Assembly (NCBI GenBank): GCA_035084275.1
Contig: CM068747.1
Location: 23,932,001 to 23,996,000 of the forward strand
From: Hydrolagus colliei
Taxonomy: Eukaryota
DNA length: 64,000 bases
Direction: 5' to 3'
Below are positions 9,222 to 53,493 of this stretch, piece by piece. How positions within the stretch are numbered: position 1 is the first letter of the stretch; the number at the start of each line of letters is the position of its first letter. Both the position numbers and the translations under genes were made by a program. The notes under the pieces were generated by a model, which worked only from the letters and a program-made list of their open reading frames with translations, made no database searches and was not told the DNA's origin.

Positions 9222-9238
9222 TGACCTCGACATGAACC
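9222..9238 (-). promoter_or_regulatory. Candidate DR5 retinoic acid response element GGTTCA-tgtcg-AGGTCA
   Basis: Plus strand TGACCTcgacaTGAACC; perfect RGKTCA-N5-RGKTCA in non-repeat sequence; function untested. Confidence 0.5.
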
Positions 9239-9899
9239 TCGGTTCTGGGAAAAAAAAATGAAAAATTCATTCGTCTCTGCATCATTTCAGCGTCGAATCA
9301 AAACCATTGTGAGCGCTGTTGTATGTCACTAAATAATATCAACAGCATTTTCCTGAGTAGCAAGCAATATCATAACACTCCACATTGACATTTGGAAAAG
9401 AAATAAAGGGAAGAAAAAATTCAAACAATTATGATGTATGAAAGCATCGTATTTCTTTTGGACCATAAAAGTGGAACCAATTTCGAATAAAATGTGGAAT
9501 TGATGAAGCTTTTAAACCTCAAAATGGAATCAGAGCTTTCAAACTTTTGAGGGGCATAAGTGTGTGAAAATTTCCTATCACACAAGAAACATTTCAGTTA
9601 TTCAGACTGTTTTTGCCGTGTTATTTTAACCCCGAAAGAATGTCTAAGAATGGAACCATGTTCCAATTACGCACACGCCTATTCTGTTGCACAAAGTGTT
9701 TGATTTGCCATCTTGGTGACCCTCTTGTTACTGTGAAATATTCATCCCCTTTACACTGCAAGGCAACGCATAGACTGCACTAATTCTGATTTATTCTAGA
9801 AGGGAAAGTGCCTCAGATATGGCGGAAGCTCTCTCCCACTACACAGATCCTGTCCACATACACACCACACACACCAAAGAGGAAGTCAGTGCAACTCAG

Positions 9900-9916
9900 T
9901 GACCCTTCTGTGAACT
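9900..9916 (-). promoter_or_regulatory. Candidate DR5 RARE AGTTCA-cagaa-GGGTCA
   Basis: Plus strand TGACCCttctgTGAACT; perfect consensus; extra AGGTCA half-site at 9951-9956. Confidence 0.5.
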
Positions 9917-11649
9917 TTCTGGGAGACGAAAAGATCATTCTGAAGAGCAAAGGTCACCCGTCATGCTGGTCACAAATGAAAATCAAATTATTCATGCAAG
10001 GAAGGCTGGTTACTTTGTGCTGTTGGCTTCAAACCCAAATACAATAAAAAAAACATTGGATTGGTATTAACAAGGCACATTAAAGAATGGATGGAGTGAG
10101 CTGGAGACTGGGGGAAGGGGGGAGATTAATGCAGCACAAACCAGTTGAGCTCTGCAGTGATAAAAGTCTGCTGCTTTAACCCAGTCCATAACATGCTATT
10201 AAATACTGTATGGAGGTGTAGGTGTAATAGGTTGATCCGTATGCTTGTGAGCAGCTCGGCCTAAACTCTTATCACACTCCTTGAATAAGATTTGTTTCTA
10301 AAGTGGTAAAGCAAATGACCTGCTTGTCCTGTGCATTAACAGATGGCTTTCCAAAATGTAAACTACAAGATTACTTAGGAGCTGCACTGTGGCCATTTGA
10401 TGCAATCCTTATTTTTTTCATCTTAAAGAAGGCTTTGTAGACGCAGACATTCTGTGGCCCTGCACTCATTTATTAACTAGGCTGCCTGTGTGCATCCACC
10501 CAAACAACACACAAATCTGTGACTTGTCAGTGTGATGGACATTCCTGAAAACACAGAGCTCAGGCTTTACCTTTGCATGCTGTATGCAGGCGAGACAGAA
10601 CACAAATACTGAGTTAAACCTAAGCAAAGCTTGTTTCCGTTGTAAGAGCAAAACAAGCGTTTGTGCTGTTACCATTTCAGCCCATTTTACAGTAGTCACA
10701 CCTGCTTGGAAACACTTAACTGAATACTTCTCATAAGCAAATGCAAATAGAGCTAGCATCCTAATGATCCCAATGTTAATTCATCATCAACAAGGCCTGC
10801 AGTGCAGAAAGTTGGACTTGGGGTGGAGAGGAAATTTATGGGCGTCTTTGAAACTGGATAGAAATGGTTCCTTGAACAAAACCTGCCGTTACCCTTTAAA
10901 GTGTATCAGGGACTTCAAACAAAAGCAAACATCGTGGTAACATTGATTTGGGTAGTATCCTTGTTAAGATTTGGTTTAAAACTGGCATATGTGTCCAATT
11001 TAGGGTGAGGAGAATGGGCAGGAATTCAAAAGACTAGAAGATAAACAATGGCAACGTGCAATAGTAGTATTCTCTTGTTATCAGTTAAAGAGGCCATGTA
11101 GCAAACAGTTCAGGGTTTTTTTTTCCGCTTTACATTGCTATTGCTGTAAAACAACCCCTAGTGGCCCCTTATTCTGAACTTTTCTTTTTGTGCATATAAA
11201 GCAGCAATAACTAACCTGTGAACAATCGGTTTCAACAAAGGAGAGCTTTGTATTTACACAGGAAATGATTTAGATGTGATGGGTCACACTGTTACAGCAA
11301 AGGGAAATGCTTTGATTTTTCTACCATAAAAAAAGCCAACTTTCTGGGTATCATCATATTGCTTGGCTAGGTTTAGAAAAAATTAAACATAAGGAACATG
11401 GTTTCTGGAAGTTAGTAATTATGATTTCCTATTGTCTTTTTCCCTCAGATCTTCAAATGATTTTTAGCCTGAAAGCAGCGGATATCAGATCAATCAGTTC
11501 CAATACTTTATCCTGTGGTCTCTTGGAGGAAATACATTCTGATTACACTGGATGGATTCAGAACCACCAGCATGGAGGAATAGGGAATCTATAGAAACAA
11601 ACTTGCTGTGTTGTGTGCTAAGGCACACATTCGCACACAAATATGTACA

Positions 11650-11820
11650 CTTCAATGAAAAAATTCTAGAGTTTATCCTTAAAGAGGAAAAATTTGCAGG
11701 GATATGTGGTAAGAGAGGGGGAGTGGAACTATTTGGTAACTTTTTCAAAGAGCTGACACAGGCACGATGGGCTGAATGGCCTCCTTCTATAGAGCTATAA
11801 AGTTCTATGATTCTATGATT
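11650..11820 (+). mobile_element. CR1 LINE 3' end
   Basis: cacgatgggctgaatggcctccttct...(ttctatga)2 terminus. Confidence 0.85.
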
Positions 11821-11994
11821 ATTCCACCATCTCTTACAATGGTAACAAAAAAATTTCAGGCATTAAAATCTGTTTGACTTTTTTTGTACAATTTAAAGCT
11901 CCAAATGTCTCCTCGTCTTAGCCTGTGGCAAATTCTTAAATTCAGTCTTGATTTAGAAGCTGTTTTTTTTAAACAGAGTCAGTGACAAGATAGC

Positions 11995-12140
11995 ATCAAG
12001 TTAAGATAGATACCAAAGGAGCAGAAAGGGTTGGTGAGGAGGGATTTATTTATCCAGAGAGTGGTTAGCATGTCCAGTGTGGTGTTGTGGTCAAAACAGG
12101 ATCCAGATTACAATTCAAAATGGAACTAGATATAAGTACC
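11995..12140 (+). mobile_element. Decayed CR1 fragment
   Basis: gtgaggagggatttatttatccagagagtggttagcatgt...attcaaaatggaactagat, resembles the CR1 ORF2 end (RRxFFxQRVV). Confidence 0.5.
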
Positions 12141-14601
12141 AAACATGGCAATGGATCATTATCTGCCATGAAAATGATGGCGCTCATGCTCACACTCACT
12201 GATCCTCTGGACATCTAAATACAATTAAACACTTTTGCACTGAATACAATGAAGTACTTTTAAATTCAATGATCACCATTATTCCATATGTTTCAGTTGT
12301 TGTTCAGAAAAAGAAACGTGGGGATAACAAGCCTTTGTAAACAACCTGTTAATAACTGAACAGCTTGTCTAATAGATAGGGAATCCTAAACTGAACTGGT
12401 CCCAAAAAAACTTACCAGTGTTTTCTATTGAGCTGCAGGGATACCATTATTTAGAATCACCATTACTAATTTTAACAAAGCATTTAAAAACACTTAAGAT
12501 GTGAGTCCACACCCACGACTGCTTGTAGCATTTCCTGGATTATCGACTGTCTCACATGTAAAAGGTCACTGAGAAGTCTTACCTCCAATTCCAATATCCT
12601 CATCCAACAATTGAGTATGTTTATGTCATGCGCTGGAAGGAAGGAATCACTTAGTGAGTAATGGCTGGAGCACACTGCCAGTATGCAGGCATCAGGAAAG
12701 CACAATTCCCTTCAAAAGCTGTGACCTATTATATGAAAAATAACAGATCTATTCCATGAAAATCCAATGTTCAATAGTTCCAATTCATTTTAAGACATGT
12801 CACTTGATTGCACATTGACTAGATTACTTAACTATACCTCAAGTTTATTTATACCAACATTTATGCAGTGACGGTTACTGCTATCAGATAATGCGTACTG
12901 TGTATAGATTATATGTTTTTATTAACCTGTCTTGGTTTTTTTTAATGCGCCCTGTTATATGTGTTTGCAATCGCCGTTATATACAGATTTTAATTATATG
13001 TCAGTCACAGATTCAACCTTATTGAAATAAGGAAATGCCACAGATATTGTGTGGGCTGTGGTAGTTATGAATATTTGATATCTACTCCAGATTTTTTTTA
13101 TAGAGTTTTCTACTTATCAGTTTGCAGCTCAAACAGGCACAGAGAGGAAGTCAGCAGAATATAAATCACAGATCAGATCAGATTCTAAACAAATGACACA
13201 GGAAAGCAAACATGGCCAACAGCAGATAGCCATATCAAACATCAATGCAATATTTACTTTCCAGAAAATAAATTAAAAATATATCAATGGCAGTTTTTGC
13301 CAACATGGGAAATTGCAATACTTTGGAGAAATCATTAATCGTTAATTTCACTGGCTTTGTGTGCCTTGAATAATTCTCTTAATTCTGTTAAATATCAAAT
13401 TGGGTATATGACTGTTTCAATGTAGTTACTAATATTATCTAGTATATTCCATTGATAATGCTATCTATCTCATTAGAGAAAACCAAGTAAAAAATATTTA
13501 TTCTTCAAGTAATACTTGTGCCATATTGTGTTGGTACAATGAAATATAGTATTTCCAGATTTATGACATGTTTGTAACAGCAGTAAATCTAATATGAACC
13601 AGATCACACTTGAGTATGACACAGGCAGTGTTTTAGCACATTGTGAAAACACAATGTCCTCTCTGTCTTTGGGCCAGGAGTAGGTGCATTACAGAGAGTA
13701 AAACTGTTTAGTCTCCAGTGTCATGGGCTGTCTGTACCCAAGACTCTCTCTCAGGTTGGTCACTATCCAGTTTATTCCTCTTCCAATGGGATCTGAGGCA
13801 TTTCACTGATGATTTAATTTGAAACCCATCAACAGGATTGGGCTTAAGAAAACAGCCATGTTGTTAAACTGTAAAAAGGACCGTGACTGTACTCAAAAGT
13901 AGATTGAGATTCCATTTCTATTTTGAGTTTTAATCGCAAATCCTTTATTAAAATCCTCTATTAAAAGCACTGCACAATGGTGTATCTTAGCAAACGCATC
14001 TTCTGTCCTGGTATTATGTGTGAGTTGTGCATCCAGATGTACTCCTGCCTCTGGCCCAGGAAGCTTGTGTCACTTCATGCATTACATTCAATTATCTTTC
14101 AAATAATAAAATCAAAAAAAATTCTAACAGAACTTTATACAAGAGCAGTGTTGTGTCACGGAAAGAGTTAAGTTGCCTGTTCTGTCACAGTTCAATATGA
14201 GACAGAATCAGACCCGCTGTAACCTGCCAGTGAACTCTGAAGTTAATATGATGAAGTTATGATTTTGTCATCAATCAGAACAGGCTATGGAATGACCAAA
14301 TCTCAGAGCGCTGCTTCAGAATCTAATTGTGCCAGAGCTTCATCAGTTTCCGGAATAATCCATTTCTTCCCTTGTCACCAGCCCCAGCCAATTGTACAAC
14401 CTTACATTATCATCTTTATCTTATTATCACATTTAGCAAGAAAGAAAATGAGGCTGTTCGGAGTTTGCAAGACAAGGCGGCTGTGCATTCTGTCATTACT
14501 TGCTTTTATTTATCTGCCTCTCACGACGCATAAAAGGGCCGTTTGCTCGTGCATTGCTGTAGGGAATCTGATGAAAATTAGGATCCCATAAGGGAATTCC
14601 A

Positions 14602-14615
14602 TGAACTTTTGAACC
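14602..14615 (-). promoter_or_regulatory. Candidate DR2 RARE GGTTCA-aa-AGTTCA
   Basis: Plus strand TGAACTttTGAACC, next to an NF-kB-like GGGAATTCC (14592-14600). Confidence 0.4.
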
Positions 14616-15090
14616 AGTATTAGACAACTTAAATCTAAAAGGCTACAACCTAATTAAATCCTTAACTGAAATGCAGTGGAATCAGGAATGCTGTACATAC
14701 TGTAATCACCAGCAAATGGAAATAGGCAACCATGTCTTGTTTTATTAACCTAAAGGTGCCATATAGTGTATTACAGCTCATTGTATCCACAAATCCATTG
14801 TCAAAGGTCCTACAGAATATAACGTTATACCTCATAGTCATTTATTGCATAAATTCAGAAGGTATAACATAATTTGACCTGAAGGTTGCCTCAAGGCTTC
14901 AAACAACTTTTGTTTAAATCAAGGCAATAATGAACAACTTGCTGCTGGGCCAATTTATGCTTTATTTTATGTTTTAATTTATGTTGCAATTTAGGTTTTA
15001 TTTTAATCGTTTAATCTACCTGCTAAAAGCCTGTTCAAAAAAGGGGCATTTTTCATTTACTGAATGATCCACTAACTTTTTGTCACTAAC

Positions 15091-15190
15091 CTTTTCGCCC
15101 GGAAAAATATACAGTCAATTCACTTTACAATATATTTGAGGTGTCTCAAAGATGTAATAAGGTATTATATCAAATGCAGGGATTATTATT
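15091..15190 (+). mobile_element. Deu-type SINE 3' fragment
   Basis: atatacagtcaattcactttaca...tatatcaaatgcagggattattatt. Confidence 0.75.
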
Positions 15191-15339
15191 GTTAATACAT
15201 CCAGATATAGATATGTAACCATTGTGTATTTATAATTCCTAATTTACATTTTACTGGCAGAATGTAGGGTGGCATTAATAAAAATGTCCTCTACTTTTTC
15301 TGAACCCTATTTTTTAATTAACCAGATTCCATTTAGAAT

Positions 15340-15997
15340 ACAACAACAACAAAATTACATTTATAGAGTGCCGTTCATGTCAGGACGACGTCCCAAGGCG
15401 CTGAACAGTTAGGTTGGGACCGGAGCAGGAGTGGGGGGTGGGAGGTGGGGATAGGGGGAAGGAGAGTAGGAGAGGGGGGAGAGTTAGGAGGGGAGCAGGA
15501 GGCACGGTCGAAGAGGAAGATCTTGAGACTGGTCTTGAAGGAGGAAAGGGAGGAAGTGAGGTGAAGGGATTGCGGGATGGAGTTCCATAGTGTGGAAGCA
15601 GAGAGGCTGAGTGTCCAGCCACCAATGGTAGGGCGGTTCAGGCAGGGGACGTGAAGCAGGCCAGAGCCCGCTGAACGGAGGGGACGGACAGGCTGATAGG
15701 GAGACAGCAGGTCAGAGAGATACGCAGGGGCAAGGCTATGAATGGCTTTGAAAGTGAAGTCGAGGATCTTGACTTCGACCCTCTGGGAGATGGGGAGCCA
15801 GTGGAGACGGCGAGGGTGGGAGTGATGTGGTCGCGGAGCCTAGTGCGGGAGAGTACACGAGCTGCAGAGTTCTGAATAATCTGCAGCCTGTGAAGGGAGT
15901 AGCTGGGAAGGCCGACGAGGAGAGAGTTCCCCTAGTCGAGCCTAGATGTAATGAATGCGCGGATTAGTGTTTCGGCAGCATGGGGGGGGGGGTGAGG
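15340..15997 (-). mobile_element. L2 LINE 3' fragment with decayed ORF2 C-terminus
   Basis: Minus strand gives AETLIRAFITSRLD*GNSLL...LQIIQNSAARVL...RDHITP/LHWLP...LRS...LWNSIP...FK, with a stop and a frameshift; L2 tail present. Confidence 0.95.
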
Positions 15998-16980
15998 TAG
16001 TGGCAGAATCTGGCAATGCAGGTTGAGAATAATGTAGGTTGAGAATAACCTCCCAAAGATGTTCATTGAACATTAAACAATTCCATTCTCTTTGATTCCC
16101 TGATAAGAAGACAGCAGAATTGACCACTGCACATCCAGCCCAGTCTCCAGTTAAACAAACACCAGAAAAGGAACTTTTTTGGGGAAAAATGCAGATAATT
16201 GTCTCTTCGCATAAGTCTTGATACCTTCTTAAATCAATCTTTAAAAAAAATAACCCTATAATTAGGATCCAATAACATGTTTTCACTGGCTGCTCTCCAG
16301 CAAAAGTTGTTGTGTGTGTGTGTAAAGCACAACGTTAACAAGATCGGCAATACAGCTGTGGAATCTCTACCTGAAGCAAATAATGATTAGAAGACGCCTG
16401 GAGCCAGGTGAATGAACAGAAGGCAATGCCTCTCTCTGCGGGTGGTCTTATATGCTCACAAAAACACTGCTACATCTCACGCATGTGATCAGACCCATTA
16501 ACCACAGGTTTAATGCAACAGATTGCTTGTTATATATGTGTTTTGTAATTGTTGGATGTTTCACAGCCATGTTTCAATTTGCATATCATTTGAATTTTGC
16601 ATTTCTAATTTCTGCAGATGATAAACACACGGTTCAGAAAATGCGACAGAAAGCTGCAATTCAAAGACGTAAAATGTTTAGGAAAGAAAAGCACTTGGAT
16701 TTACTCATAATCAAATTACAGTTTGCAGTGCTGATAATCAATGATAGCGAAGTTGCGAGATACCTTGATTTTTGAGTTGTTTTACATTTAGTTTGCCCTC
16801 TGTTTGAGACACCTTTCCAGTGACGATTTATTCGCTTGCAAAGACCTTGTGCATCTGCAAAAGGGATAATAAAGAAATGTTTGCTTCTTGCTATTCTCTC
16901 TCTCTGTCTCTCCTTGTCACTCCCGAAGGCTTTTTCACTGGAGCGGATGCAATTCCATGGCACTGATTGTCCAATTACCA

Positions 16981-17265
16981 AGGAGGGGTTGCTAGATATT
17001 GATCAGGAGCAGTAACCCGGGCTGATTTTCTGGTCCCAGCCTAGGGCACAAAGACCAATTGTATCAGCGATATTGCCACCCCAGCTGAGATCAGCTAACT
17101 CAACACAAATGAGGATTTAAACCTGGGATTTTTTTTTGTGGTTAGCCAGATATTGGGCACATGTGGAAACCCATCACTATACAACGCTTAAGAGTCTCCA
17201 AACCACACTGAGAGTTCCGTAAATATGGTTTTTTTCGGTTTATCTTCCCAGTCTGTATGGCTCAA
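16981..17265 (-). mobile_element. AmnSINE2-like relic interrupted by a ~110-bp insertion
   Basis: gatcaggagc...gctgatttt...ccaattgt...cagctgagatcagctaactca...aaacctggga[insert]cttcccagtctgtatggctca. Confidence 0.65.
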
Positions 17266-17499
17266 TTACTCATAAATAATAATAATAATAAACTCATTGA
17301 GCCTCCTTGAAAATGAATAAACTGATATTTAAATCTTGAAGCATTCTAAATAAGTACAGTACTGTAAATCCATACACAGGTACCATGCTTTGTACAACTT
17401 TGATTTAATAAACAAGCCTCAAATTTTTGCCCTAGAATATCCAGAGCATTACGTTGAGTAAAATACTGGAAATACTGTGCTTCTATTGAATTGAATTTG

Positions 17500-17880
17500 A
17501 AGTGCACACCTCTGGGACTTGGGTTTGTTCCAGTCCAAGGCTAATTGAATGAAAGTCTTTTCTCTCTGCTGGCTTTTAAGGGTTCAGCGTGAAATGAGTT
17601 TTGTCTGAATCAACCCAGTTTCTAGAGGTTACACACCCTACAGTACAAAGTATTCTTAACTCTGGAGAAATTGGCAATATCAGCCAGAGGGACCATCAGG
17701 ATGGCTGCTCTGAAAAAAAACCACATGTACAAAAGGTGTGCTTTTTTGAGGCCTGACAAATGCATGTTGTATGGGGAAAGCGAGTTTTATGTGCTGTCTG
17801 GCTTTGCTGCAGGTTAGCTGAGTGCTTGATGCTGGCTGGCACTGAATGTCAAAAGCAGAAATGTTCCTTCATCAAAAATG
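17500..17880 (+). mobile_element. LF-SINE-like ancient SINE
   Basis: cacctctgggacttgggtt...tccag...gaaagtc...gtgaaatgagtt...ccagtttctag...aattggca, resembling the LF-SINE consensus as I recall it. Confidence 0.55.
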
Positions 17881-17971
17881 ACATATTTTCACCTTGAAGA
17901 ACACAGAAAGCTTCTGGAAGAAAGAAGAATGTAACATGCTGAGAAATGTGTTCAACATATTCAAGCAGCAA

Positions 17972-18030
17972 ACTTTGGATACGGCTCGAAGAAGTGATCA
18001 GGCGCTATATTAAATGTAAGGATTATTATT
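17972..18030 (+). mobile_element. SINE tail fragment
   Basis: aggcgctatattaaatgtaaggattattatt. Confidence 0.65.
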
Positions 18031-19771
18031 GTCAAGATCACTCTTTATATGTAGCCCGCCTCTTTCAAAAAGGTACTTTATTTTCACATACCATTCCAGC
18101 TTCTCATACCATATTACATCTTTCATTTGCTCTGTCAAATTCCCATCCTTTAAATCTTATTGCCAATCCCACCTGTCACATTTTTAGGCTTGGACACTGT
18201 ACACTGTACAGTGCTTATGGCTGTATAATAATACAGATGCTACTCAGTGCAATACTTAACTGTATTACCACCTGCTCTTGAAATGCTGAAAAAATCTCTG
18301 TTTAATTTCAGCTCAGCGACATGGGCTGAGATCCAGGCCTTGTCCTCATGAACCACAGCTGCTGCTACTTATGCAGATTATAGAGCTCAGTATATTACAC
18401 TAATAAAATAAAATTCAAGCATATGATTCCAGGACAAAAACGCTAGATTATCAAACACAAGTTCATGAATGTGACATGAATGGAGAGAAAATGCTACCCG
18501 AATTTTTCTAAAAGTTGGTGTTAAAAAGTCATGTAATGTAACAAAGTTTGACCTCAATAGTACTGTACATTTATATTCTTCATTTAACAAAGATTTGGTT
18601 CTCCAAAGTATCTTTTAATAATGGCCCATTATTGGCCCTGTGTGAGGGTAAGCTATTTAAATGGAAGTTGCTCTTTTTGTGGTGTATTCCTGTCTGATTT
18701 TCACTTCTAAACTCCGGTCTAAAACATTTACTTGTATCTCTCAACAAAGATCAAAATATATTTTAACCACAATTCTGGAATTAGCAAAGACAGCATCTCA
18801 TTAGTGAGGAATGAACACCCTCTTCGACTCTAACTGGAACTTTGCTGTGTCTTTAATACATTAAAAGTTAGAAGGAAATCTAGGATCAATTATAGCCTTA
18901 GATAGTCTGAAGAAAGGGATAATTAATCTATTAAATACACATGAATAAATTGTGCAATCCATCCCTTAACGTCTTAAATGAAAGTTACTGTAAAGATCTT
19001 ATCAATTGACCTACATGTGTTAGGAATGTATACGGTATATTGCAGCTTGAACTCTGCCAGCATGCTCTCTAGAAAGCTCATCCAAAATATTTTTATGTGA
19101 TGTATGCTCTCTTTGAAAACATGATTTTTCATTTTCGACACTTCACATATACTGTTTCCAGATTCCTGACTTCCATAAATATTATGCTCACATATCATCA
19201 TGTTAGTGCTATAACAATTTACTGGAACGTGGTTTCGGAGACTTTGCCAGGACCTGGGTTATATTGTGGTTGACATTACACTGTCATAGCAAATGGTTCA
19301 TAAATCTTTTATAGGTTTCAGAGATTTTACAAACCTCCTGTGTTTCATATGGTGTTTCTTACCGCCTGAGAAGTCCTGAAATATACCCCCTTTCCTTGTA
19401 ACGGTTTCCTAATGTTTTCCGAATCTAGTTTCATCACACACTTCCAATTATGACGGGTGCTCTTTGCGGCAGTAAACTGATCTCTCCCTGAATACACAGG
19501 GTATATTATCCATATATTTACACCGATAACATTATAATGTACTTAATATGAAATAGCAGACTTTTTACGTACAACTTTCAAGTTATGGTTTAATCATAAC
19601 ATGATGTTTTGACAAATTCCAATTCATCCTATTCAGCTGCTTGGAGTACAGGCTTTAAGGGATCTATCTGTCTGTAGGAGTCTGGCTCAATGCTTTCTTC
19701 CATTGCCAACGCCTGACATCTTCTGGAATGTTGCTCTTTAAAGAGTGACTGAGTTATGTTGAAATGGGTCC

Positions 19772-20076
19772 ATAATAATAATCCTTGCATTTGATATAGC
19801 GCTTTTCACATCTTCTAGATGTCTCAAAGCGCTTCACAGAATATACTGTAAAGTAAATTGACTGTATACTTGTGGCCGAAACACAGCAGCCAATTGTGCA
19901 CAGCAGTGTCCCATGAACAGTGGATTGAGTGACCAAATTATTCTTATCTTTTTTTGAGGGAACATTATTCGGAGTGTGGAGTAATGAAATTTGCTCAAGG
20001 TTTCACCCTGCCTGGAATCAAAACCAAGTCTCCCGTTTGTAAGGCATGTGCTCTTACCACTGAGCTACAGGACTTC
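19772..20076 (-). mobile_element. Full-length tRNA-derived Deu-type SINE
   Basis: Pol III A-box TAGCTCAGTGG, B-box-like GGTTTTGATTCC, Deu-like body (gggacactgctgtgcacaattggctgc), L2-type tail, (att)n. Confidence 0.92.
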
Positions 20077-29555: not shown

Positions 29556-29594
29556 CATCATATTCCAACTACAGTAACATGGAAAAAGAGGTGT

Positions 29595-30010: not shown

Positions 30011-30432
30011 TTGAGAAGCTCAGTCCAGAAAGAGGAACCAATAAAATAATCTCCGATGTTTTCTGTCTACATTATAATATAAAATATTTTTAAAACATCA
30101 GTGAGTCTGTAACACATTTGCCAGTTTCTGTCACATAATCTCCTGCTTCATTTCCATGTTATGTGACGAGTCATTTTTATGTTCCAGTTATTCATGTAGA
30201 ATTTTTCTGTACACTTTTAAGGATGTGTACGTATTTGTGGTACATATGGAAGAGTAGACCCACTACTAGCCTATAGCGAAAAAAGCTAAAACACATACCC
30301 TGTTAGATAAACAAATGTATTGATCAACATTGGAAGATTTTGCTTCCAAACAGACAAGCTCATTTAATACACTTTCTCCCTTTGAAATGCAATGTTCTGT
30401 ATACTATAATTACAACATATAGTTTGGCAGCA

Positions 30433-31029
30433 AACAACAAAAACAACAACAAATTACACTTATAAAGCGCCTTTCACGTTGGGAGGACGTCCCAAGGCGC
30501 TGCACAGGAGGCGTGTGACCCGAGCTGAGAGGGGAGTGTTTGGGAAGGGGTGAGACAAATAGGGGAGGTTGAAAAATTTTGGGTGGAACAAAAGGCACGG
30601 TCGAAGAGGAAAGTCTTCAAACCGGCCTTGAAAGAGGAAAGGGAAGAAACGAAACGGAGGGATTGGGGGATGGAATTCCATAGGGTGGGAGCGGAGAAAC
30701 TGAAGGCCCGGCCTCCGATGGTGGGGCGGTTGGGGCGGGGGGCTTGGAGCAGGCCAAGTCCTGCTGAACGGAGGGTCCGGGTGGGCATGTAGGGGGAGAG
30801 TAGATCGGTTAAATAGGGCGGGGCAAGGCCGTATAAGGCCTTGTAGGTGAGGATGAGGATCTTGAACTCGATCCTCTGGAGGATGGGGAGCCAGTGGAGA
30901 CGGGCGAGGGTGGGGGTTATGTGGTCGCGGAGGCGGGTGCGGGATAGTACACGGGCTGCAGAGGTTTGGATGGCCTGCAGCCTGTGAATGGAGGAACTGG
31001 GGAGGCCGACGAGGGGAGAGTTTCCGTAG
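30433..31029 (-). mobile_element. Young, CpG-rich L2 LINE 3' fragment
   Basis: PTRTLRSAGLGLLQAPRPNRPTIGGRAFSFSAPTLWNSIPQSLRFVSSLSSFKAGLKTFLF is the L2 ORF2 C-terminus; intact tail. Confidence 0.95.
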
Positions 31030-38851: not shown

Positions 38852-39607
38852 ATGTATAGATGTACTCAGCTGACCCAACATGAAGCAAATCTGTCAAATA
38901 AAATGTAAAACAGCATAATTTTAGTGGAGTGGAGTTATTACCAATTTCCTAAAATATTACCTTCATAAAAGACTTATTTGTACTTGCTGGTAAGTGTAAA
39001 CCCATAATAATGTGGTTGCTGCCACTTTAGAGAAGATAATGACTGGGTGTTATTGGTAGTGAGAAAATGTGCAAAGAGTAAAATGTGTTCACATTAACTT
39101 ATATGAGAAATGTTTAACTGTGAAACATGATACTTATCCAATTTGGACCACCCAATCAGTTAGAGCACTGGTGGCCAACAGTTATGGTTTGCCAACACTA
39201 TAAATATTTTTATTCGCATATTTCGATTACTTGAATAAATCAAGGAATATTCAATCAAGAAAAAACGGAAAACACACAAACAATTAAACATGGACTTAAC
39301 TAGACACATGACAATGTTTGGGGGGAGCTGATTCTTGATTGCCCCGTAGGTTACAGAGTTAGAGCTTTAGCTCACAATGTTTAGGACATGTCTGCACATC
39401 CAATTCTCATTTATGTCCTTGATAAAACTAGGTGATAAATTGACCGACCATCAAACGGAACTTGGATTACTGTTTGATTAGACTTGTCTCCACAGTGACA
39501 ATCCATTACATAAGTCAACATTTACGATGTGAGGAGTTGCCAACTATGGCCTAACTAAGGTTCTCTTAAAACATCAACTGTTTTTATTGCTTCTCTCTGA
39601 ATCTTTT

Positions 39608-40029
39608 ACAACAATAAAATTACACTTGTACAGCACCTTTCGCGCCAGGAGCATGTCCCAAGGCCCTGGATAGTCATTGTTTCAGACACGAGCTGGAGTC
39701 GGGGACGGAGAGGGTGGAGGGAAAGTGGGGGATTTGGGGTGATCAATGGGACCGTCGAAGAGGAGGGACTTGGAGGAGGCCAGGGAGAGGGCAAGGTGGA
39801 GGGACTGCGGGATGGAGTTCCAAAGGTTGGGGGCAGAGTGGCTGAAGGCTCGCCCACCAATGGTGGCCGGGGTGGGTTGAGGGACATGGAGCAGGCTGGA
39901 GCCTGCCGAGCGGAGGTGGCAGGCAGGTTGGTAGCTGCTTAGGAGGTCGCAGAAATAGAGTGGGGCAAGGCCGTGGAGGGCCAGAATCTTGAATTGGATC
40001 CTCTGGGTGATGAGGAGCCAATGGAGCCC
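39608..40029 (-). mobile_element. L2 LINE 3' fragment
   Basis: LHWLLITQRIQFKIL...GLAP.Y..DLL...LRS...GGRAFS.SAP.LWNSIP. Confidence 0.93.
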
Positions 40030-41296: not shown

Positions 41297-41525
41297 TGAG
41301 CCAAGATTAGGAAGAGAATCTGATAAAGGTTTATGCAAGTTTTTGATAGGATAAATTGAGAATAATGTCTCTCTGTTCTTACTAATTGGTGAGTCAAGAA
41401 CAGAGGGCATCAACAGTAAAAAAAACCAGGGGTTATATTTTCTTTTATAACTACAATGGATAAGCTAGCATCAGAACAAACACAATGAGCCAAATGACCT
41501 CCTTCCATGCCATACATTTTTATGC

Positions 41526-42589: not shown

Positions 42590-42664
42590 TTCAGGACACG
42601 CCAGCGCCTTTGGACCTCCTCTCAATGTGAAAAGACCTATACAAATGTAATTTTGTTTGTGTTG
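42590..42664 (+). mobile_element. L2 tail-only insertion
   Basis: cagcgcctttggacctcctc...gtgaaaagacctatacaaatgtaattttgtt. Confidence 0.78.
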
Positions 42665-44311: not shown

Positions 44312-44619
44312 ATAATAATAATCCTTGCATTTCATATAACGCTTTTCACATCTACTAGATGTCTCAAAGTGCTTCATAGCATATACCATAAAGTGAATCA
44401 ACTGTATTTGTGGTCAAAACGTGGCAGCCAATTACACACAGCTGTGTCCCACAAACAGTCGTGGATTGAAGTGACCAATTTATTATTGTTTTTTTCTTGA
44501 GGGAATATTATTAGGTGTGTGAAGTAAGGAAACATGCCCAATGTTTCACCCTGCTGGGAATTGAACCCGGGTCTCTCGCTTCAGAGTTGAGTGCTCCAAC
44601 TACTGAGCTACAGGACTCC
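44312..44619 (-). mobile_element. Full-length tRNA-derived Deu-type SINE
   Basis: GGAGTCCTGTAGCTCAGTAG...GGTTCAATTCC head, body, tail. Confidence 0.92.
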
Positions 44620-44749
44620 ACATTAATATAATATTTACGTCCTGTATATTGTTCTTCTGAATATGGTGATTATTTTAGAAAAATATAAACATCAGTCTGG
44701 TTCAGTTGGTAACACATTAGTCTTTAACTTCATGGCTGATTTATGAAAA

Positions 44750-44911
44750 ATTGTGTGGAACATTTCTGTCTGCAAATTGACTGCCATATTCACCCACAAA
44801 TAGTCAGTCACTACAGTTTACAGAAAAATCTCTGAAGTGCTTTTGAGAAAAATCTCTGAAGTGCTTTTGAGAAACTTCAATGTGATGACGTGCAATATCA
44901 AATGTAAGAAT
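44750..44911 (+). mobile_element. Older Deu-type SINE fragment with a perfect 24-bp tandem duplication (44822-44869)
   Basis: (agaaaaatctctgaagtgcttttg)x2 inside the SINE tail. Confidence 0.8.
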
Positions 44912-45619
44912 CCCTTTCCGCCATTGTCTGGCTGTAGTGCAAGCTTTTGCACATTGATTTTTCTGAATTTGGAGATTATTTATTTTTGTGCTCGTTTTTA
45001 ATTGAAAAAATGATTGCAATATTTTGTGGAGCCAAATGGTGATCTTGAGTACTGAATAAAATGTCACCCGTTTCAAATAATTTTAGGTTGTCTTTGAAAT
45101 TTAGCACAACAAATGCATCCGAGGAAAATGAAATTATGGAATGCACTCATTGTTTATCCAGGTAATATGTTTTATGATATGCAGATTCATTGGTTTTGGT
45201 ATCCCACAAATATTTTATATAATTCAGATACTGAAAAGATATATCAGACTAAATCAATGCCATGGAGGTCGTAAGACAACATGCTGATGACCAGTATGAC
45301 ACGTGACTAAGCTTCTTTGACCTTTTCATGTCTCACAGGACGTGTTCAAGTCTCAGCTAATTACTTCACTGCTCATTTATAATTTATAGCAGAAATTACT
45401 TGATAACGCCTGAATTCTTAACAAAGTCACTTCTCAGTCTAACTGGAGCAGATACATAAAGCAGTGCTGCTTTTGAGGATCTAATGGGTGACCTGAACTG
45501 CAACCAGTGCCACACGAGCCATTCAATTGCCTGAAGGAAATCACACAAAGATAAAATACATTTCAACTGGACAATTACAAGTTAATGTTGTTGTTTAAAC
45601 TAGATACAATAATTATTTA

Positions 45620-46315
45620 GGCTTTAACACAGCAGGTTCGATTTAATACAAATCAGAAGTAAAGCAAATGAAAATTGTTTGTAGTTTATATAAGGACCTA
45701 ATAGGAAGACTGACTTCAGAAGCTGCTTAAGGCTGACCCTCTCTCCCTGGCTCATTTCTGAAGGAGACACCTTTTGTATGCAAATATAAACTGGGGACTA
45801 ATCATCTTGTAAACACGAAGATCTTCTTTCAGTACACACTTGTTAAAATCCAAAGAGATTGGATTAACCATTTAGGCTTGTTGGAACTAACAGTAATCCT
45901 CTAATGTATAATGCGAGTTGCTTGCACTTGTGAAGTCGCTGTGTTTACCAAATAGTTACAGGCATTAGTTAAAAAAACACAGAGTAAGATCAAAGACATC
46001 ATTCTGTTTGTCTACATTATCATTTAATGTATTTTAAGGGGATACAGTTGCATTGAATGCCTCATTAAATTTGTATTAAATGGAAAAGTACTGGTTGGCC
46101 ATTTTAATCATTAGTGTCACTCACAAAATGTTGTTACAATCTCTTGTGATGCTGTTTTGCACGCAAAATCTGGCAGACGGCTGTTTTAGTACTTTTCAGT
46201 TTTCTCTTTTGAAACTTGTTGCAACACTATAGTGATCTGCTACCAAAAGAATTCATCTCCTTGCCTTGTGAAAGTTTTTTTTTGTCCTTTGTGTGTTTAT
46301 CTCGGGCAGAGTATC
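45620..46315 (-). other. MTX2: Probable MTX2 3' UTR; candidate ATTAAA poly(A) signals at 46103-46108, 46023-46028 and 45642-45647
   Basis: Repeat-free AT-rich sequence after the stop. I found no minus-strand AATAAA before ~44980. The 45642 ATTAAA overlaps an upstream TGTA and has U/GU-rich sequence downstream. The end point is a guess. Confidence 0.45.
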
Positions 46316-46508
46316 TCACAAGCTCCTGGAAGTGGGACTGAATGTACTTTCGTGGTCAAGCTCTTCAAAGTAGTTTTGTTCTATTCTTCGACAAAACTTT
46401 ACAAGGTTTTCGTAATTCTTCACTTTTTCACTTAGTGCGTCATTGGTAAGCTGAGTTGTAAGGATGGTGAACAGATGGCCGAACACCAGTGCATCCAGTT
46501 CTGTTGGC
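46316..46508 (-). CDS. MTX2: Metaxin-2 last coding exon (exon 10), end of the GST-C-like domain, TGA at 46316-46318
   Basis: gtgctgcag|G CCA ACA GAA...; (Q)[63 protein letters not shown], near-identical to human [48 protein letters not shown]. Confidence 0.98.
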
Positions 46509-47201
46509 CTGCAGCACAAACATTAATGGTTAGCTAACCACTACTTTGGAAGACAATGTCGAGGCCTACAGCAATATTCTGTCACGAAGAACAGGTTAAG
46601 GAAAGGTCATTGTAAGTGATATTAAGATAGCAGTTCTGTGTCCCCAATAAGCTGTTGGCATTTCCTAACTAAATTAAGCCAATCTCTGTAGGTTTCATAG
46701 ACGCACACCATCTTAATTTTTATTACTGTAATTTATTATACTTCTGCCTTGTGAAAAAACCTTCTGTCATTAACAGATTAATTACATTTTCCCAAATGAA
46801 CATAAATTAAATACACTAAAATAGCACACTTAGAAATGTAATGTAGAATACAAAGTCTTGTGACCATTGATAGTTGCTCTTCATCCCTCAGTGAAACAAA
46901 ACTGAACAGGGAATGCGTGCTCCCTGCCTCCCCTGAAGCTACTGTGCATAACAAAACCTTCCTTAAAATAGAATGGCGCACTTCAAATGGTAAAACACAT
47001 CGCTTCTGGGCGTTTCTTCTGCCAAGAAGTCCGATACTGTTAATAAAAGAACCTACATGGTGGTAACAGTAGAATTCCTTTGTACTAAAAGGCAAGACAA
47101 AAGGAAATAAGGGGATTGAGGAAATCAAAGGACAGCGCTGTTGGAAAAGAGCCATCTCTATGTTCTAGTGCTATACCCAAGATCATGACAATGAAACTTA
47201 C

Positions 47202-47278
47202 TGTCGGTTGAAGAAATAGGACTGGTTCCCAAGTCTTTGAGAGAGAGCTTGACAGCACTGATCCACATCTTCATAGAC
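47202..47278 (-). CDS. MTX2: Metaxin-2 coding exon 9 (77 nt)
   Basis: ggctgctag|GTC TAT GAA...AAC CGA CA|gtaagt; VYEDVDQCCQALSQRLGNQSYFFNR(Q); phase 0 to 2. Confidence 0.97.
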
Positions 47279-47819
47279 CTAGCAGCCAGACAAAAGGTTA
47301 CACCGAACATTTATGAATTTAAACCCAGACCAAATCCACCTAAAATACTTCAGCTCCTAATTAATTACAGCTAAATGTCAGTAATTTACTCCTATGTTTT
47401 ACATAGACATACACAACACAAGACAGTACCAAGAGAAAGGTCAGAATATCCAGATCTTCCTCAAAACTTAAATCTAAACTTTCATGAAGCAAATGAAAGA
47501 TTGAATGAAAGGTAACTGTAGAAATAAAGGAGCATGAATTCAGTGGTGCAATGTGCATTATCCAAGTGATGTGGTACAGTTATCTTGTACATTATGTGCT
47601 TTTATGCAGATAACATCTAAGAACTTGAACGAGTAATAACAAATTCTATGCACTGGGCTTCTTTTGTTGTTTCACGGTCGAAGAGGAGTTACTAAATCAT
47701 TTCCTATTTAGAATATTATGGATCACATAAGGTAATTCTGCAGTGAGCAGGCCATTAATTTTTTTAAATCTATGAAATATCCTTATTCATTTCAACAATC
47801 ATTTTCAGAATTCAGTAAC

Positions 47820-48120
47820 AAAATCAACATCAACTATTATAGCTCCCTCCATGCCAAGAAGCGTCACAGAACATTTAACATTGGCTGAGCCTGACTCCGA
47901 GCCGAGAGGAGTTGGTGGGAGGTGGCGTAAGCAGGATCGAAGAGGAAGGTTTTCAAGATGGGAAGTGGAAAGTGGGAGAGAAGGGGCAAGGCGGAGGGAT
48001 TGAGGAGAGTGATCCAGAGTTTGGGGGCGTAGTGGCTGAAAGTGCAACCTCCAATTATGGGGTGGAGGGTTCGAGGGACGAGCAGGAGGCTGGCGCCAGG
48101 CCAACAGAGGCTCCAGGTGC
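47820..48120 (-). mobile_element. L2 LINE 3' fragment in MTX2 intron 8
   Basis: LLLVPRTLHPIIGGCTFSHYAPKLW...LKTFLFD; gagcctgactccgagc 3' UTR. Confidence 0.88.
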
Positions 48121-49024
48121 TAGTTTGGGGAGTGAGTGGATTTGAGAGGATTCTTGTGAGGTGAGCATTCAATAGAATTCCAGAAATTGTTTCCTCAACG
48201 AGAAGACTAGGAATTAACAACCAATTACAGGATATTTTTTAAAATAGCTCAGAGGGGGTGATTCTCTCATGTAATTTCAGAGGCCAGGTGATATCCATAA
48301 ACAACTAAATCCCCGGATTTCTGTTTGTTTTTGAAGACACCTGGCCCCAGTATTTAATCACTCACTCTCTCACACACTAAAATTTTCTTTGAAGATCACT
48401 TGTGTTACATAGATTATATTCCTGATTGAAGCAATAAACTCGTCAGAAAAGGTGTGTTTTGCAATACACAACATCAGAGTTGATCAGATGCCAAGGCCGC
48501 AGGCTATTGTATCGAATCAATCAAAGTGTAGGGGGAGTTTATTACTGTACACTTCATAATACTGTATATTTGAGCTTGAGGGGAGTTAAAATTGCTAATT
48601 TGCGAAAGCACATTTTTGTTGGTTGCAAAAGTCACATATTCAATAAGAATTCCAGCGTTAGGTTTGGGTAAAGGTATCATTTTGTTGGCCAGCAACAAAT
48701 TCTGCCTTTTAATTCCTGAATGTACTGATGAAAAGCCTTGTCACAGGGATGTCAGTGAATTGGTCAGACAACTGATTTAGTTTTGAATAGAATTACTCAT
48801 GCAATCTTTACCGCTCAATTCCTATGTACAAAAAAGTTTTTTTTGAGATTCGGTTTTCATCAGTATTGCAAATTCAAATTTTGTAAATGTGGGAAACAGT
48901 CTACTTCCGCAAGTTTAAAAAATAAACACATCTTAAAGTATATAGAAATGTTACTTTGCTTATAATTCAACATTTTAAAACAGCAAACTGTTTCAAATGG
49001 TACTGAAAAATGACAATAACTGAC

Positions 49025-49150
49025 CTGTGAAAGGTTCTTCCCAGCCCATCCAACGGCTTTCATCTTGCGTCTTACTTCCCATTGTTTCTGATAGGCCAGG
49101 ATATGGTTAAGAGGCCAAGGATAGGGAGAGCCATATCTAGATCGAGTTAT
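49025..49150 (-). CDS. MTX2: Metaxin-2 coding exon 8 (126 nt)
   Basis: gtattaaaag|ATA ACT CGA...TCA CAG|gtcagt; [42 protein letters not shown]. Confidence 0.97.
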
Positions 49151-49719
49151 CTTTTAATACCAAAAAGGTTGAACATTTTAGTTTGCAAAGTCCATGAACT
49201 ATTAGGCTATATAAATCCTTTAATTAAGAGTAATATACCACATAAATAAATCCCTATTCCTTGTCACCTTTTTCTATATTCCAATCTATTTGCAAATGAT
49301 TGGTAATGTGTTAATTGGTTATAAGTATACACAGAATATTATACATGTCAAATGGAAATAACACTACAAAAAAATTGAGAAGGCACAGTAACAGTATTTC
49401 AACAGTTATTTAAGAGGTAAGGCTTACAAAGGTCAATGAATGACTTGTTCGTCGTTTCATTTCTGAAAATTTCTTTCAGCTAAATTCGAATTGTAACTCA
49501 ACATAGTCAGTGGCTTTGGGAGAAAGAGAGAGAAGAAAAATAATCTGGTAAAGTGCTTAATTGCTATGCTGAATTATCCTCTAGCAGAGATGGGTAGACA
49601 ATACCATCTTTAGTTAAGAAGGCTCTAGATATGGTAATCTGATGCTCCGCGGATCTCTACTCCCCCACACCTTCCATTTGGCCTGGCCTGTATCCATTGT
49701 GTCAACACACAACAACTAT

Positions 49720-50282
49720 AGTTAAATCTCATATGTGGGCACCTCAGTAATGAGGGTAACTCACTCTTCAGGTCTCTTCACAGTCTATTTATTTCCTCAA
49801 TTTGAATGGATGGAGATCAAAATCCCAAATGCAATGATGGCATCTCACCAATAAGAGCAAATAGGCTAGTCCATTGACTGCTATTATAAGGAGAAAACAT
49901 CTCAATAGTCAAGTTATGCCATTTTCCTCCTTATATTGAAGTGTTTAACAAAAGTAGGATCATAGCAATTATGATAACAGTTTAGGCAGAAATTGGTTTA
50001 TTGCCATCCAAATGATTTTATAGGTTCTACAATAATGTGTTGTCCGACTATGACAACATTTTTTAGAAAATCATATAAAGTTCCCTTGTATTGGAATATT
50101 TTGTAAAAATAGTGGCAGTGGAAATTTTCTATTAAGGGCAGTCAAGAATGACCTGGTTTTGCTCATTAAGAAGTTTGATATTTTGGTTACCATCTGTTCC
50201 TATTAAAAACAAAGGCTGTGGAAAATTGCCCTGAATAGTGAGTTGCCCTCATTACTGAGGTGCTCAGAGGGTGAGCTTCAAT
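49720..50282. mobile_element. Ancient palindromic (fold-back, MITE-like) element in MTX2 intron 7
   Basis: 49739-49772 matches the reverse complement of 50230-50263 at 32/34; weaker complementarity continues inward. Confidence 0.7.
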
Positions 50283-50411
50283 TTGACTCAAAGAAAATAT
50301 GCAAAACATTGAGGTTTTCAAATTAACGCTATTATTCTAGGTTCATCGATACGTTTACAAATTAAAAGATCCATTTTGTGAAACTTTATAACTTGCTAAG
50401 ACATTACACAC

Positions 50412-50450
50412 CTTGGCTGAAGTGCTGTCATCACACCACTGTATGTAAAG
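50412..50450 (-). CDS. MTX2: Metaxin-2 coding exon 7 (39 nt)
   Basis: gtcgtacag|CTT TAC ATA CAG TGG TGT GAT...GCC AAG|gtgtgt; LYIQWCDDSTSAK vs human LYLQWCDEATVGE. Confidence 0.94.
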
Positions 50451-50849
50451 CTGTACGACAAAAGACAAAAGTTAGTTCAGAAGAATATAAATATTATGCA
50501 TGTATATCTGTGTGGGTCTACACACCACATCCCTGTGACAAAGATCAGTAGTTGGGGATGGTTCTTAAAATCCCAACCCACCTTATAATGAATGGTGCAC
50601 GATCACTGATCAGTCATGCAGAAAGCTGGCTTGCTTCAAAACACCACCAACCTTATCACCCAAGTCATATGTGCACCCTAGTCCCATTCAGTTTTCTACC
50701 CAAATCACTTTGCTCTAAGAAGCAAATCATCTCCTCACTAATGCTGCTACCACACTTACTGGCTACATTGAAGAGGAAAGACAACTAGATTGATTTTAAT
50801 GTATAGTATTGAGAAAACAGAAACAGTAATGGTCTTTAGGCAGACATAC

Positions 50850-50942
50850 CTCAGCTGTCAAAAGCATATTATTCACCAGTTCCATGTAGGCTTTCATCTC
50901 AGCTTTTTGAACTTCATCCAGTCCCTCACTAAGTGAATGGCC
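50850..50942 (-). CDS. MTX2: Metaxin-2 coding exon 6 (93 nt)
   Basis: tctctctag|GGC CAT TCA...GCT GAG|gtatgt; [31 protein letters not shown]. Confidence 0.97.
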
Positions 50943-51473
50943 CTAGAGAGAAAGGTTTGTAGATGTACACTTTCAGATCTATGTTCTTAATGCAGTTAAA
51001 GGATCATCAAGATTACTGTACAATGAACATTCAGTTGATTATTTACCATCCAAATAAAAGTCATTAGTATGAACCAGTAATTTGAACTTGATCTTTAGGT
51101 TTAATCTTGTATCAGACAGTGCATTTAATCACTGGACCATTGGGGGAGCTGTCAAACAGCTCTAATTCAACAGTTTTTAAATGCAGTGTAGGTTTTAAAG
51201 GAGGAGGCAGCACATCACATTTCTTAATCAAACACAATTATCACTTAAATGAAACAGTTTTAGGACAAATAGTAGAAAGCATTTTATCAGCCTAGAGTAG
51301 CATATACCTACTTTCTACACTATAATCATAAACCCAATGCCCTATTAAGCAAAAGATGAAAGATAGCAGTAAATACATTTTTAGATGGCTGATTCAACAG
51401 AACACAATACAAAGTGACAGATGAAGTGGCATTTGCAATGCCAAAGTATGCTAACAGCTATCATTTTTCTCAC

Positions 51474-51550
51474 CTTGGCTTTTGCAAACTGGACTATGGG
51501 ACCAAGTTCTGATACAACGTGATTTCCCACATGTATAAAGGGAGCCTTGC
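51474..51550 (-). CDS. MTX2: Metaxin-2 coding exon 5 (77 nt)
   Basis: tatactcag|GC AAG GCT CCC...GCC AAG|gtgaga; (G)[25 protein letters not shown] vs human [26 protein letters not shown]. Confidence 0.97.
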
Positions 51551-52139
51551 CTGAGTATAAAAGAAGATCATTTAGGTTATTATAATATTTTTACACTAAA
51601 ATAGGACTTTTTACAAAAAAATCATGTTAAATATGTATAATTATAAACACAAAATAAATAAGGGCTGTTATTTAATAATAATAACAAGAACAGTTCAAAA
51701 ATGGATCTGCTCTGTCTCCACTAAGTAGTGAATATATTAGATATTTAACAGTAAAAGCCTCTTGTATGTAACTAAACATACAGAAACTCTTCCTGCCTAG
51801 CTCTTATAACATTGTTCAGTGTGCACATGACTTGATCCAGTTGCACATGAACTGTTTCTTGCTTAACATTTTTTTAAAGTTATTGTGCTTTTCTTAAAAG
51901 CTGCACTCCAAATTGTTTTTGTCTTTCTCTGTGCTATATCTACATGCACCTCAACACAAGTCAATGTCTTCAAGAAAGGAAAAACATCTGGTGTGATGTT
52001 TAATACTGAGCTGACTTTTAGCAGACAGATTGATGGTCAATAATTCCAGTTAGGAAAGAAAAATATTTGAATCTGAGTGGGACTCTGACCTCTTCCTCCA
52101 CACCCCCTTCCCCCATTTTCTATCGGTTGATGTCCCTTA

Positions 52140-52315
52140 TGTTAGCACGCAGCAACTAGTTAAACAATACTTTGGTAATTAGGGAATTCTAATCACTATT
52201 CTGGTTATTTTTTCCACTATTATTTTCTCCCATTTAAAATCCACTTCAATGAGGACACTTTACCAAGAAAAAACATAGGCTAGTCTATCGAATGCTTTTA
52301 ATCGCAAGTTTCCAC
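52140..52315 (+). repeat. Diverged second copy of the left arm of the intron-7 palindromic element
   Basis: Colinear blocks caact..agttaaa / gtaat.aggg..tcact.ttc.gg / aaaatcc...caatga / accaa...ataggctagtc shared with 49703-49885. Confidence 0.6.
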
Positions 52316-53476
52316 TCTAGATCATTCTAAATTTCTCCCAAAATCTTTTGGACTCCATTTCTCTTCAATATTTCATTCACAAGTTCTTTTGTAAGGATTG
52401 CGTTATCTTGTTTGCTTCAGTATGATTTTAAGATGTTTTATTTCAATGTTGCTTGGAGTAACCCTGCCTATTATCTTCTTTGGTTTCTGTTCCTCAATCC
52501 ACAATTACTGTACTATTAATGGTATTATTATTTAAACTTATGTTATTCTTTATTTAGTGCATTTGGGTTTTTCTGCCAACATTCCACAATTCTGCCACTA
52601 GATGCTAGAATGTAGGCCTTTACTACGTTATGCAACAACAACCACAGATGGTTTGCCCTATATTTACCAGGGTGGGCGGGGGGGAGAAATAAGCAATCTT
52701 GATCAGCATTTCCCCAAATTGCCTTGATTTCAGAAGTCAAATTGCAAAGCACCAATAGGCTATCCCAATCTGAAGACATTTACAAAAGCTAGAGTTATTT
52801 TAATCATTGAATCAATTTGAACATTTTCATCCAAAGCAAATGATTCCTCCAACTGGTTCTTCTACATTCACAATACCTCACGCTGCATTCAAATAATTGT
52901 GATCTGAACTCTTATCTCTAGCAATGCTATTCCGAAATCAGCTGTTAAGAGCAGCTGGAGAGAGTTTAGGTGGCCTGCACTTCAGATTTTCCTTTCCCTT
53001 CATATTCTCAAAACTAAAAATCTCCCACCATGGAATCATGAGTGCAGACCAGCAGTAAGATCGTAAAGAACGGTATGAGAAAAGCTCAATTGTTCCAGCA
53101 AACACAGAACGTATACTCTCATCAATTTCACCCACCAATTCTCTCCTGAAGGAAAGTTAAGAGATAAATACTCTAATTCCCTAAAGACAATAAAGAATAA
53201 CTCAGAAAATTCATTCATCCTCAAGTTGCTACCATTCAGCTATAGCTTGCTAAGCATTTTATTTTCTCTCTGGAGTGATAAAGGTAGTAAAAATTAACAA
53301 TAACCTATTACATGTGTGTGGAGGAGGGTGGGGGAAGCAATAATAAACTTAAGGGACTACAATGTTTTGTGTAAACATACATAAATTGTATTTTGTTTCA
53401 TAAGAAAGGTATGATGGTAAGAAAGGACCAGAGAAAAAATGTTTGGCCAATATGCATGAAACCTGCTGTTAAGGCC

Positions 53477-53493
53477 AGTTCACATACAGTTCA
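53477..53493 (+). promoter_or_regulatory. Candidate DR5 RARE AGTTCA-catac-AGTTCA in MTX2 intron 4
   Basis: Perfect DR5, with TCF/LEF-type CTTTGAA at 53521-53527 and 53648-53654. Confidence 0.5.

Follow-up and report, generated by a model that had tools for sequence, protein, structure and literature searches.

Candidate retinoic acid response modules 3' of HoxD in Hydrolagus colliei are paralogous to modules within SKAP2 and SKAP1

Distal retinoic acid enhancers of the Hox clusters

Distal enhancers that respond to retinoic acid (RA) are already known 3' of the HoxA and HoxB clusters. The closest described system lies in the fourth intron of skap1, 3' of HoxB, where the accessible parts of the study report four sites bound by the RA receptor (RAR) in zebrafish and mouse, the first two peaks about 0.6 kb apart; one of the sites is an RA-inducible, BMS493-sensitive enhancer with a hoxb1b-like pattern in posterior hindbrain and gut, and RA raises the expression of skap1 itself about 12-fold (López-Pérez 2021, PMC8608873). 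The present analysis concerns a 64-kb window of the Hydrolagus colliei genome (contig CM068747.1, here C14, 23,932,001-23,996,000; window positions are used below unless a contig is named), which is the 3' flank of HoxD, and two modules in it, A and B, that carry direct repeats of the RA response element (RARE) type with a spacing of 2 (DR2) or 5 bases (DR5). Like the skap1 sites these are several DR2/DR5-type sites far 3' of a Hox cluster, and their HoxB copies belong to the same stretch of SKAP1. The HoxD copies differ in lying inside no SKAP gene, and are therefore paralogues of the SKAP1 intron 4 element rather than that element itself; the main text of the skap1 study, so far as accessible, names no skap2, mtx2 or hoxd.

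On the HoxA side, the distal 3' enhancers include Heater with H-AR1/2 (De Kumar 2015, PMC4510006), Ades1-6 (Neijts 2016, PMC5066237), E1/E2 (Cao 2017, PMC5435891) and the e-site (Su 2019, PMC6649716). In the passages available they resemble the modules described here in being long-range, RA- or Wnt-responsive elements on the 3' side that act on Hox1 and its neighbours, and no cross-cluster paralogy is reported. Those that are placed there lie between Hoxa1 and the start of Skap2 or overlap it, whereas the HoxA copies of our modules are situated deeper, in SKAP2 intron 4. For HoxD, the Mtx2 region of the mouse makes preferential contacts with Hoxd1, whose expression in somites and face depends on it; the enhancers EC1-3 of this D1 region, part of the telomeric domain (T-DOM), share with our modules the Mtx2 region, and among them is a conserved somite enhancer, yet the word 'retinoic' is absent from the accessible main text (Hintermann 2022, PMC9307994). 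A survey based on the human genome has addressed non-coding elements that were retained at paralogous positions after the genome duplications; its accessible part has no tri- or tetraparalogous element in the Hox-linked blocks and makes no mention of SKAP, in contrast to the triparalogous, RARE-bearing modules reported here (Matsunami and Saitou 2013, PMC3595034).

A literature search found no paper on copies of the modules in SKAP2 intron 4, and none on HoxD or cross-cluster copies, which subscription papers (Nolte 2013, Lalevée 2011 and others) and supplements may mention. The passages available of Bedois 2024 and of the Asymmetron paper make no mention of SKAP, and four supplementary files of Berenguer 2020 hold no Mtx2, Skap1 or Hoxd entry. 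Nolte and co-workers reportedly described related RARE enhancers flanking both the HoxB and the HoxA cluster.

Paralogous modules 3' of HoxD

Hox1 genes are also found on contigs C2, C35 and C39. C2 carries SKAP2 and C35 carries SKAP1 and, on the basis of established synteny, they are thus the HoxA and HoxB contigs, which leaves C39 as HoxC by elimination. Modules A and B keep their order and their orientation relative to the Hox genes at HoxD, HoxA and HoxB, and in the three-way alignment the half-sites of the repeats at 14602, 14220 and 9222 are retained together with their spacing while spacers and flanks drift. The HoxA copies lie between exons 4 and 5 of SKAP2, inside intron 4 (C2:51,644,706-51,708,025). 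The HoxB copies come after exon 2 and before exon 5 of SKAP1 and are preceded by a weak match to exon 4 (E=0.035), which places them probably in intron 4. Along the HoxD contig, 264 kb were searched and no SKAP exon was detected. The modules occur at three places genome-wide and, at HoxA and HoxB, between mapped SKAP exons, and are neither a transposon nor an exon; what connects the three paralogous loci is significant non-coding homology in conserved order and orientation. The enhancer-like sequences at HoxD appear to have outlived their SKAP host gene.

Module A (14217-14618, minus strand) is recovered at HoxD with an E-value of 1.9e-13 by an nhmmer profile derived solely from the copies at HoxA and HoxB and run over 1.05 Mb. 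The HoxD copy has diverged further than those two have from each other: BLAST misses it and the profile finds it. At one end of the module is a perfect DR2 followed by a conserved tail (14602-14615, minus strand), with counterparts at C2:51653330 and C35:3184735. At the other end is a one-mismatch DR5, AGTTCA-N5-AGGTTA (14220-14236, minus strand), matched by C2:51653681 and C35:3185094, both of whose half-sites are identical across the three copies. The distance between the two repeats ranges from 351 to 379 bases. When flanks were scored against 1500 random places, none matched the DR2 as well as either its HoxA or its HoxB counterpart did; for the 14220 site the figures were 0/1500 for HoxA and 8/1500 for HoxB. 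A pattern of the DR2 plus its tail, allowing at most one mismatch, gives three matches in 1.003 Gb (HoxD, HoxA and HoxB) and none when reversed; the pattern fits these loci by construction and its informative part is the lack of any other match. A second module pattern matches twice, at HoxA and HoxB, and misses HoxD because that copy differs at its first base. Forty-one bases upstream of the 14220 site begins TGATNNAT, which we take to be a Pbx/Hox-type motif.

Module B consists of a core (8766-9061, minus strand; profile E=1.2e-32) and a neighbouring DR5. The core is 86% identical to the HoxA flank (E=4.9e-25) and 78% to the HoxB flank (E=6.8e-10), has no other match in the genome and holds short motifs which we presume to be of the TCF/LEF, E-box and Meis types. 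The DR5 at 9222-9238 (minus strand) is perfect at HoxD and at HoxA (C2:51673307) and has one mismatch at HoxB (C35:3234610). Its distance to a common anchor in the core is 235 bases at HoxD, 247 at HoxA and 334 at HoxB, and the probability of a perfect DR5 on the correct strand within 20 bases of the expected place is about 8e-5. The case for this site rests on its position beside the core, since its immediate flanks are only weakly alike across the copies; a Hox1-proximal DR5 used as a control in the same scoring gave 3/1500 and 0/1500. The site TGATTAAT is common to module B of HoxA and HoxB and, in the three-way alignment, is not kept at HoxD.

Between HoxA and HoxB the kinship extends further. 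SKAP2 intron 4 gives four low-copy, same-strand matches to the HoxB region, three of which are colinear and correspond to modules A and B and to a third module, each with a direct-repeat element. The third module (C2:51664820-51664956 and C35:3199321-3199458) is 82% identical between the two clusters and contains a DR5-like repeat ending in CGGTCA. In this genome the SKAP1 intron presents four ordered candidate sites, namely module A, the third module, a lone DR5 and module B, in addition to two further perfect DR5. Set beside the zebrafish data, the 0.6-kb spacing of the first two skap1 peaks would fit the two repeats of module A, and the third module is a candidate for the element tested in zebrafish. 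A separate low-copy block of 112 bases, 77% identical, is located between Hox1 and SKAP at both clusters (C2:51542313-51542423 and C35:3059414-3059525) and may be a conserved element or a rare repeat.

A comparison with relatives covers positions 9100-14000 and 4 of the 16 runs listed. In the close relative X6, at about 2% divergence, the 9222 element has a single change, which falls in the spacer and leaves the half-sites intact; among the differences listed none affects 9900-9916. At this divergence both observations carry little information. The sequence of a more distant relative, X15, does not reach the sites.

Motif counts and the remaining sites

A sequence-only reading of the window had pointed to five sites, spread over 44 kb, as a distributed, long-range RA-input system for HoxD extending into the MTX2 introns. 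All five are present where it placed them, with RGKTCA half-sites in direct repeat at a spacing of 2 or 5; the site at 46593 and the 14220 site, which was absent from its list, each have one mismatch. Three of the five lie on the minus strand, which is the sense strand of HoxD and MTX2 (the DR5 at 9222-9238 and 9900-9916 and the DR2 at 14602-14615), and two on the plus strand (the DR5 at 53477-53493 and the one-mismatch DR5 at 46593-46609). As had been claimed, none is part of a tandem repeat or, in an all-against-all BLAST of 664 kb, of an interspersed repeat; all are single-copy and a repeat origin was rejected.

The claimed excess of these elements is found in the perfect DR5. None of 100 dinucleotide shuffles of the window reaches three perfect DR5 (mean 0.19), but the genome itself, with 4,238 perfect DR5 in 1.003 Gb, supplies 0.27 per 64 kb, so that the earlier estimate of about 0.1 was too low. 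At this rate the probability of at least three per 64-kb window is 0.0027, which amounts to about 42 of 15,675 windows by chance, and three perfect DR5 were observed in 2 of 334 windows tiled from the start of contig C1. The lone DR2 is no excess by count, being reached in 18 of 100 shuffles. DR5 with at most one mismatch number nine against 4.7 expected, a total reached by 4 of 100 shuffles, and the six that carry a mismatch, 46593 included, are for that reason near chance. The DR5 count is therefore a modest excess and a weak lead for a genome scan; as sole evidence it was rejected in view of the 42 windows expected by chance. Genome-wide, perfect DR6 are equally common (4,936). A single 17-mer accounts for 32 among the first 100 perfect DR5 listed for the genome, from which it follows that a repeat family spreads DR5 motifs.

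Taken together, the 3' flanks beyond Hox1 of the four clusters amount to 921 kb and contain 14 perfect DR5 where 3.9 would be expected, a count that includes paralogous copies and hence sites that are not independent. Twelve of the 14 are in the Hox sense and two are antisense, and seven other spacings total 20 perfect repeats in the same flanks.

The sites outside the modules fare less well. The perfect DR5 at 9900-9916 (minus strand) lies between modules A and B and has a possible counterpart in a perfect DR5 of the SKAP1 intron (C35:3224219), with a flank score equalled at 12 of 1500 random places, the best of four candidates tried. This pairing is suggestive and leaves 9900 as a weak candidate; pairing it with the HoxA DR5 at C2:51654784 or with the third module gave scores at background. 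The perfect DR5 at 53477-53493 (plus strand) is located in the MTX2 intron between the exons ending at 54240 and starting at 51554, and the one-mismatch DR5 AGGTTA-aggaa-AGGTCA at 46593-46609 (plus strand) is in the last MTX2 intron. For none of these three did nhmmer find a paralogue in the 1.05 Mb, and flank matching likewise found none for 53477 and 46593, both of which are probably background. The best ungapped flank match (C14:23909122) was a repeat and was discarded.

Origin and mode of action

The homology of the modules, read together with their repeats, makes it likely that the sites at 14602, 14220 and 9222 belong to long-range enhancers of Hoxd1-d4 acting through RAR and the retinoid X receptor (RXR). 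RAR/RXR would occupy the repeats and be switched to activation by RA, and the module would loop over MTX2, across 74-79 kb, to Hoxd1 and its neighbours. The TALE/Hox and TCF-type sites may set the tissue, be it hindbrain, endoderm or somites. Support for such a mode of action is drawn from the RAR-bound skap1 sites 3' of HoxB and from the contacts between the mouse Mtx2 region and Hoxd1.

As to age, the Hox clusters group as A/B and C/D, and the HoxA- and HoxD-linked Evx genes were duplicated at the first round of genome duplication (1R) (Marlétaz 2024, PMC10972751). An element common to D, A and B should thus predate 1R, given that A/B and C/D parted at that point. The ancestral single Hox cluster would have been flanked 3' by a SKAP gene with an RA-responsive cassette in the fourth intron; cluster duplication would have copied the cassette, and HoxD would then have lost the SKAP exons and retained it. 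A wider proposition, which we put forward tentatively and rate slightly below an even chance, is that the Hox 3' landscapes grew from this one pre-1R cassette in an ancestral SKAP intron 4, that the desert past MTX2 is its fossil and still feeds RA input to Hoxd1-d4, that homologues exist in lamprey, hagfish and the mammalian D1 region, and that the three-way paralogy is so far unpublished.

The modules provide named sequences of 300-400 bases for dating the origin of long-range Hox cluster control, what appears to be a clear case of enhancers retained after the loss of their host gene, and a pointer to candidate RAREs in the fourth intron of SKAP2. Should the HoxD copies be functional, distal RA input would be older than the split of cyclostomes and gnathostomes, and the well-studied HoxD 3' desert would contain an RA module of which its literature, so far as searched, makes no mention.

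Alternative explanations

Several observations weigh against RA-driven enhancers at HoxD. No HoxC copy of the modules was found in 200 kb by nhmmer profile, nor genome-wide by motif pattern, and the third HoxA/HoxB module was found neither at HoxD nor at HoxC. The immediate flanks of 9222 score no better than 58 and 77 of 1500 random places. The primers of the zebrafish reporter gave no sequence match, leaving no module matched to the tested element, and in the accessible zebrafish endoderm data hoxd3a falls with RA (log2 fold change -3.0) and the tables name neither mtx2 nor skap2 (PMC8608873). Among the 9,956 rows covered of a table of F9-cell RAR/RXR peaks, none of the 21 with end coordinates starting 747 or 748 is on chr2, so that no peak was seen at chr2:74.7-74.9 Mb, 3' of Mtx2, though the Skap2 control failed as well, with 0 of 15 rows on chr6 (PMC4446430). 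That interval is presumably the position of Mtx2 in mm9.

In one rival reading the modules are ancient enhancers whose HoxD repeats serve receptors of the NR2F/COUP-TF type, mediate repression by RA, or are a minor input beside Wnt/TCF and TALE-Hox. Other nuclear receptors do bind such direct repeats, and in module B conservation is highest in the core, some 200 bases away from the DR5. Some HoxA 3' enhancers are indeed Wnt-dependent in the accessible text (Neijts 2016, PMC5066237), and the fall of hoxd3a and the lack of a listed F9 RAR peak 3' of Mtx2 point the same way. The spacings, however, are fixed at 2 and 5, those of RAR/RXR, in all three copies, and the SKAP1 intron 4 sites bind RAR, one of them activating with RA in zebrafish according to the accessible text, so that we consider this reading improbable. 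The missing third module and the greater divergence of HoxD module A could also mean that the copies at HoxD are relics in decay that do little today and can be seen only because the lineage evolves slowly; but perfect DR2 and DR5 half-sites survive amid unalignable neighbours, the module B core is still 86% identical to HoxA, and neutral sequence would not persist since 1R, all of which makes decay very unlikely.

That the modules act on MTX2 or other neighbours instead of Hox genes is hardly credible. MTX2 is the nearest gene, and zebrafish skap1, host of the HoxB copies, is itself strongly induced by RA; against this, the Hox cluster is the only neighbour common to the three copies, because SKAP is absent at HoxD and the other metaxin-domain matches are on other contigs, and expression driven by the zebrafish element is hoxb1b-like in the accessible text. 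The sequence-only reading, with all five sites in one distributed system that includes the MTX2 introns, is an unlikely one. It can draw on three perfect DR5 where 0.19-0.27 are expected, on the single-copy nature of all sites and on the consideration that lineage-specific RAREs would have no paralogue. On the other side, 53477 and 46593 lack paralogues, a single chance perfect DR5 per window has a probability of 0.24, one-mismatch sites are near chance, and the two intronic sites are antisense where 12 of 14 Hox-flank DR5 are sense. What survives of it is that genuine long-range RAREs are very likely present among its sites; the signal is concentrated in 5.4 kb (9222-14615), its MTX2-intron part is unsupported, and the key fact that it missed is the kinship of the modules with HoxA and HoxB.

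The MTX2 locus and neighbouring features

The assignment of the window to the HoxD 3' flank with MTX2, also made from sequence alone, was borne out. MTX2 (metaxin-2; 46316-62487, minus strand) has nine coding exons running from about 62487, where the 5' start is not fixed, to a stop near 46316. Over the last exon it shares 96% identity with metaxin-2 of Callorhinchus milii, as fits a holocephalan. The sites at 9222, 9900 and 14602 are 32-37 kb past this stop codon and modules A and B are 74-79 kb from the Hoxd1 homeobox, with MTX2 as a bystander gene in between. Hox homeodomains, which from their peptides we read as groups 1, 2, 3, 4, 5 and 8 and a posterior gene, follow on the minus strand 24-95 kb past the window end, with a Hox9 domain at 24.085 Mb on C14. 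In keeping with a chondrichthyan, the HoxD cluster (C14:24020214-24090841) appears to retain genes of groups 2 and 5.

About 3 kb 3' of Hoxd1 (C14:24016696-24016956) a perfect DR5 and a perfect DR1 are found some 200 bases apart. Counterparts lie 3' of Hoxa1 (C2:51497311 and 51497518) and 3' of Hoxb1 (C35:3026427, with an aligned block at 3026675), which identifies the pair as a Hox1-proximal RARE pair retained at this Hoxd1.

The longer open frames of the window are accounted for by fragments of repeats of the long interspersed element type at 15335-16018, 30429-31029, 39604-40028 and 47817-48136. Inside MTX2, an element of about 720 bases (59034-59749) shows internal inverted similarity and matches C2:51750948-51751671 at 85% identity; it resembles a non-autonomous DNA transposon. 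The low-copy sequence at 7587-7738 has two matches in the HoxA flank (C2:51601402-51601552 and 51613608-51613718) and is probably an old repeat.

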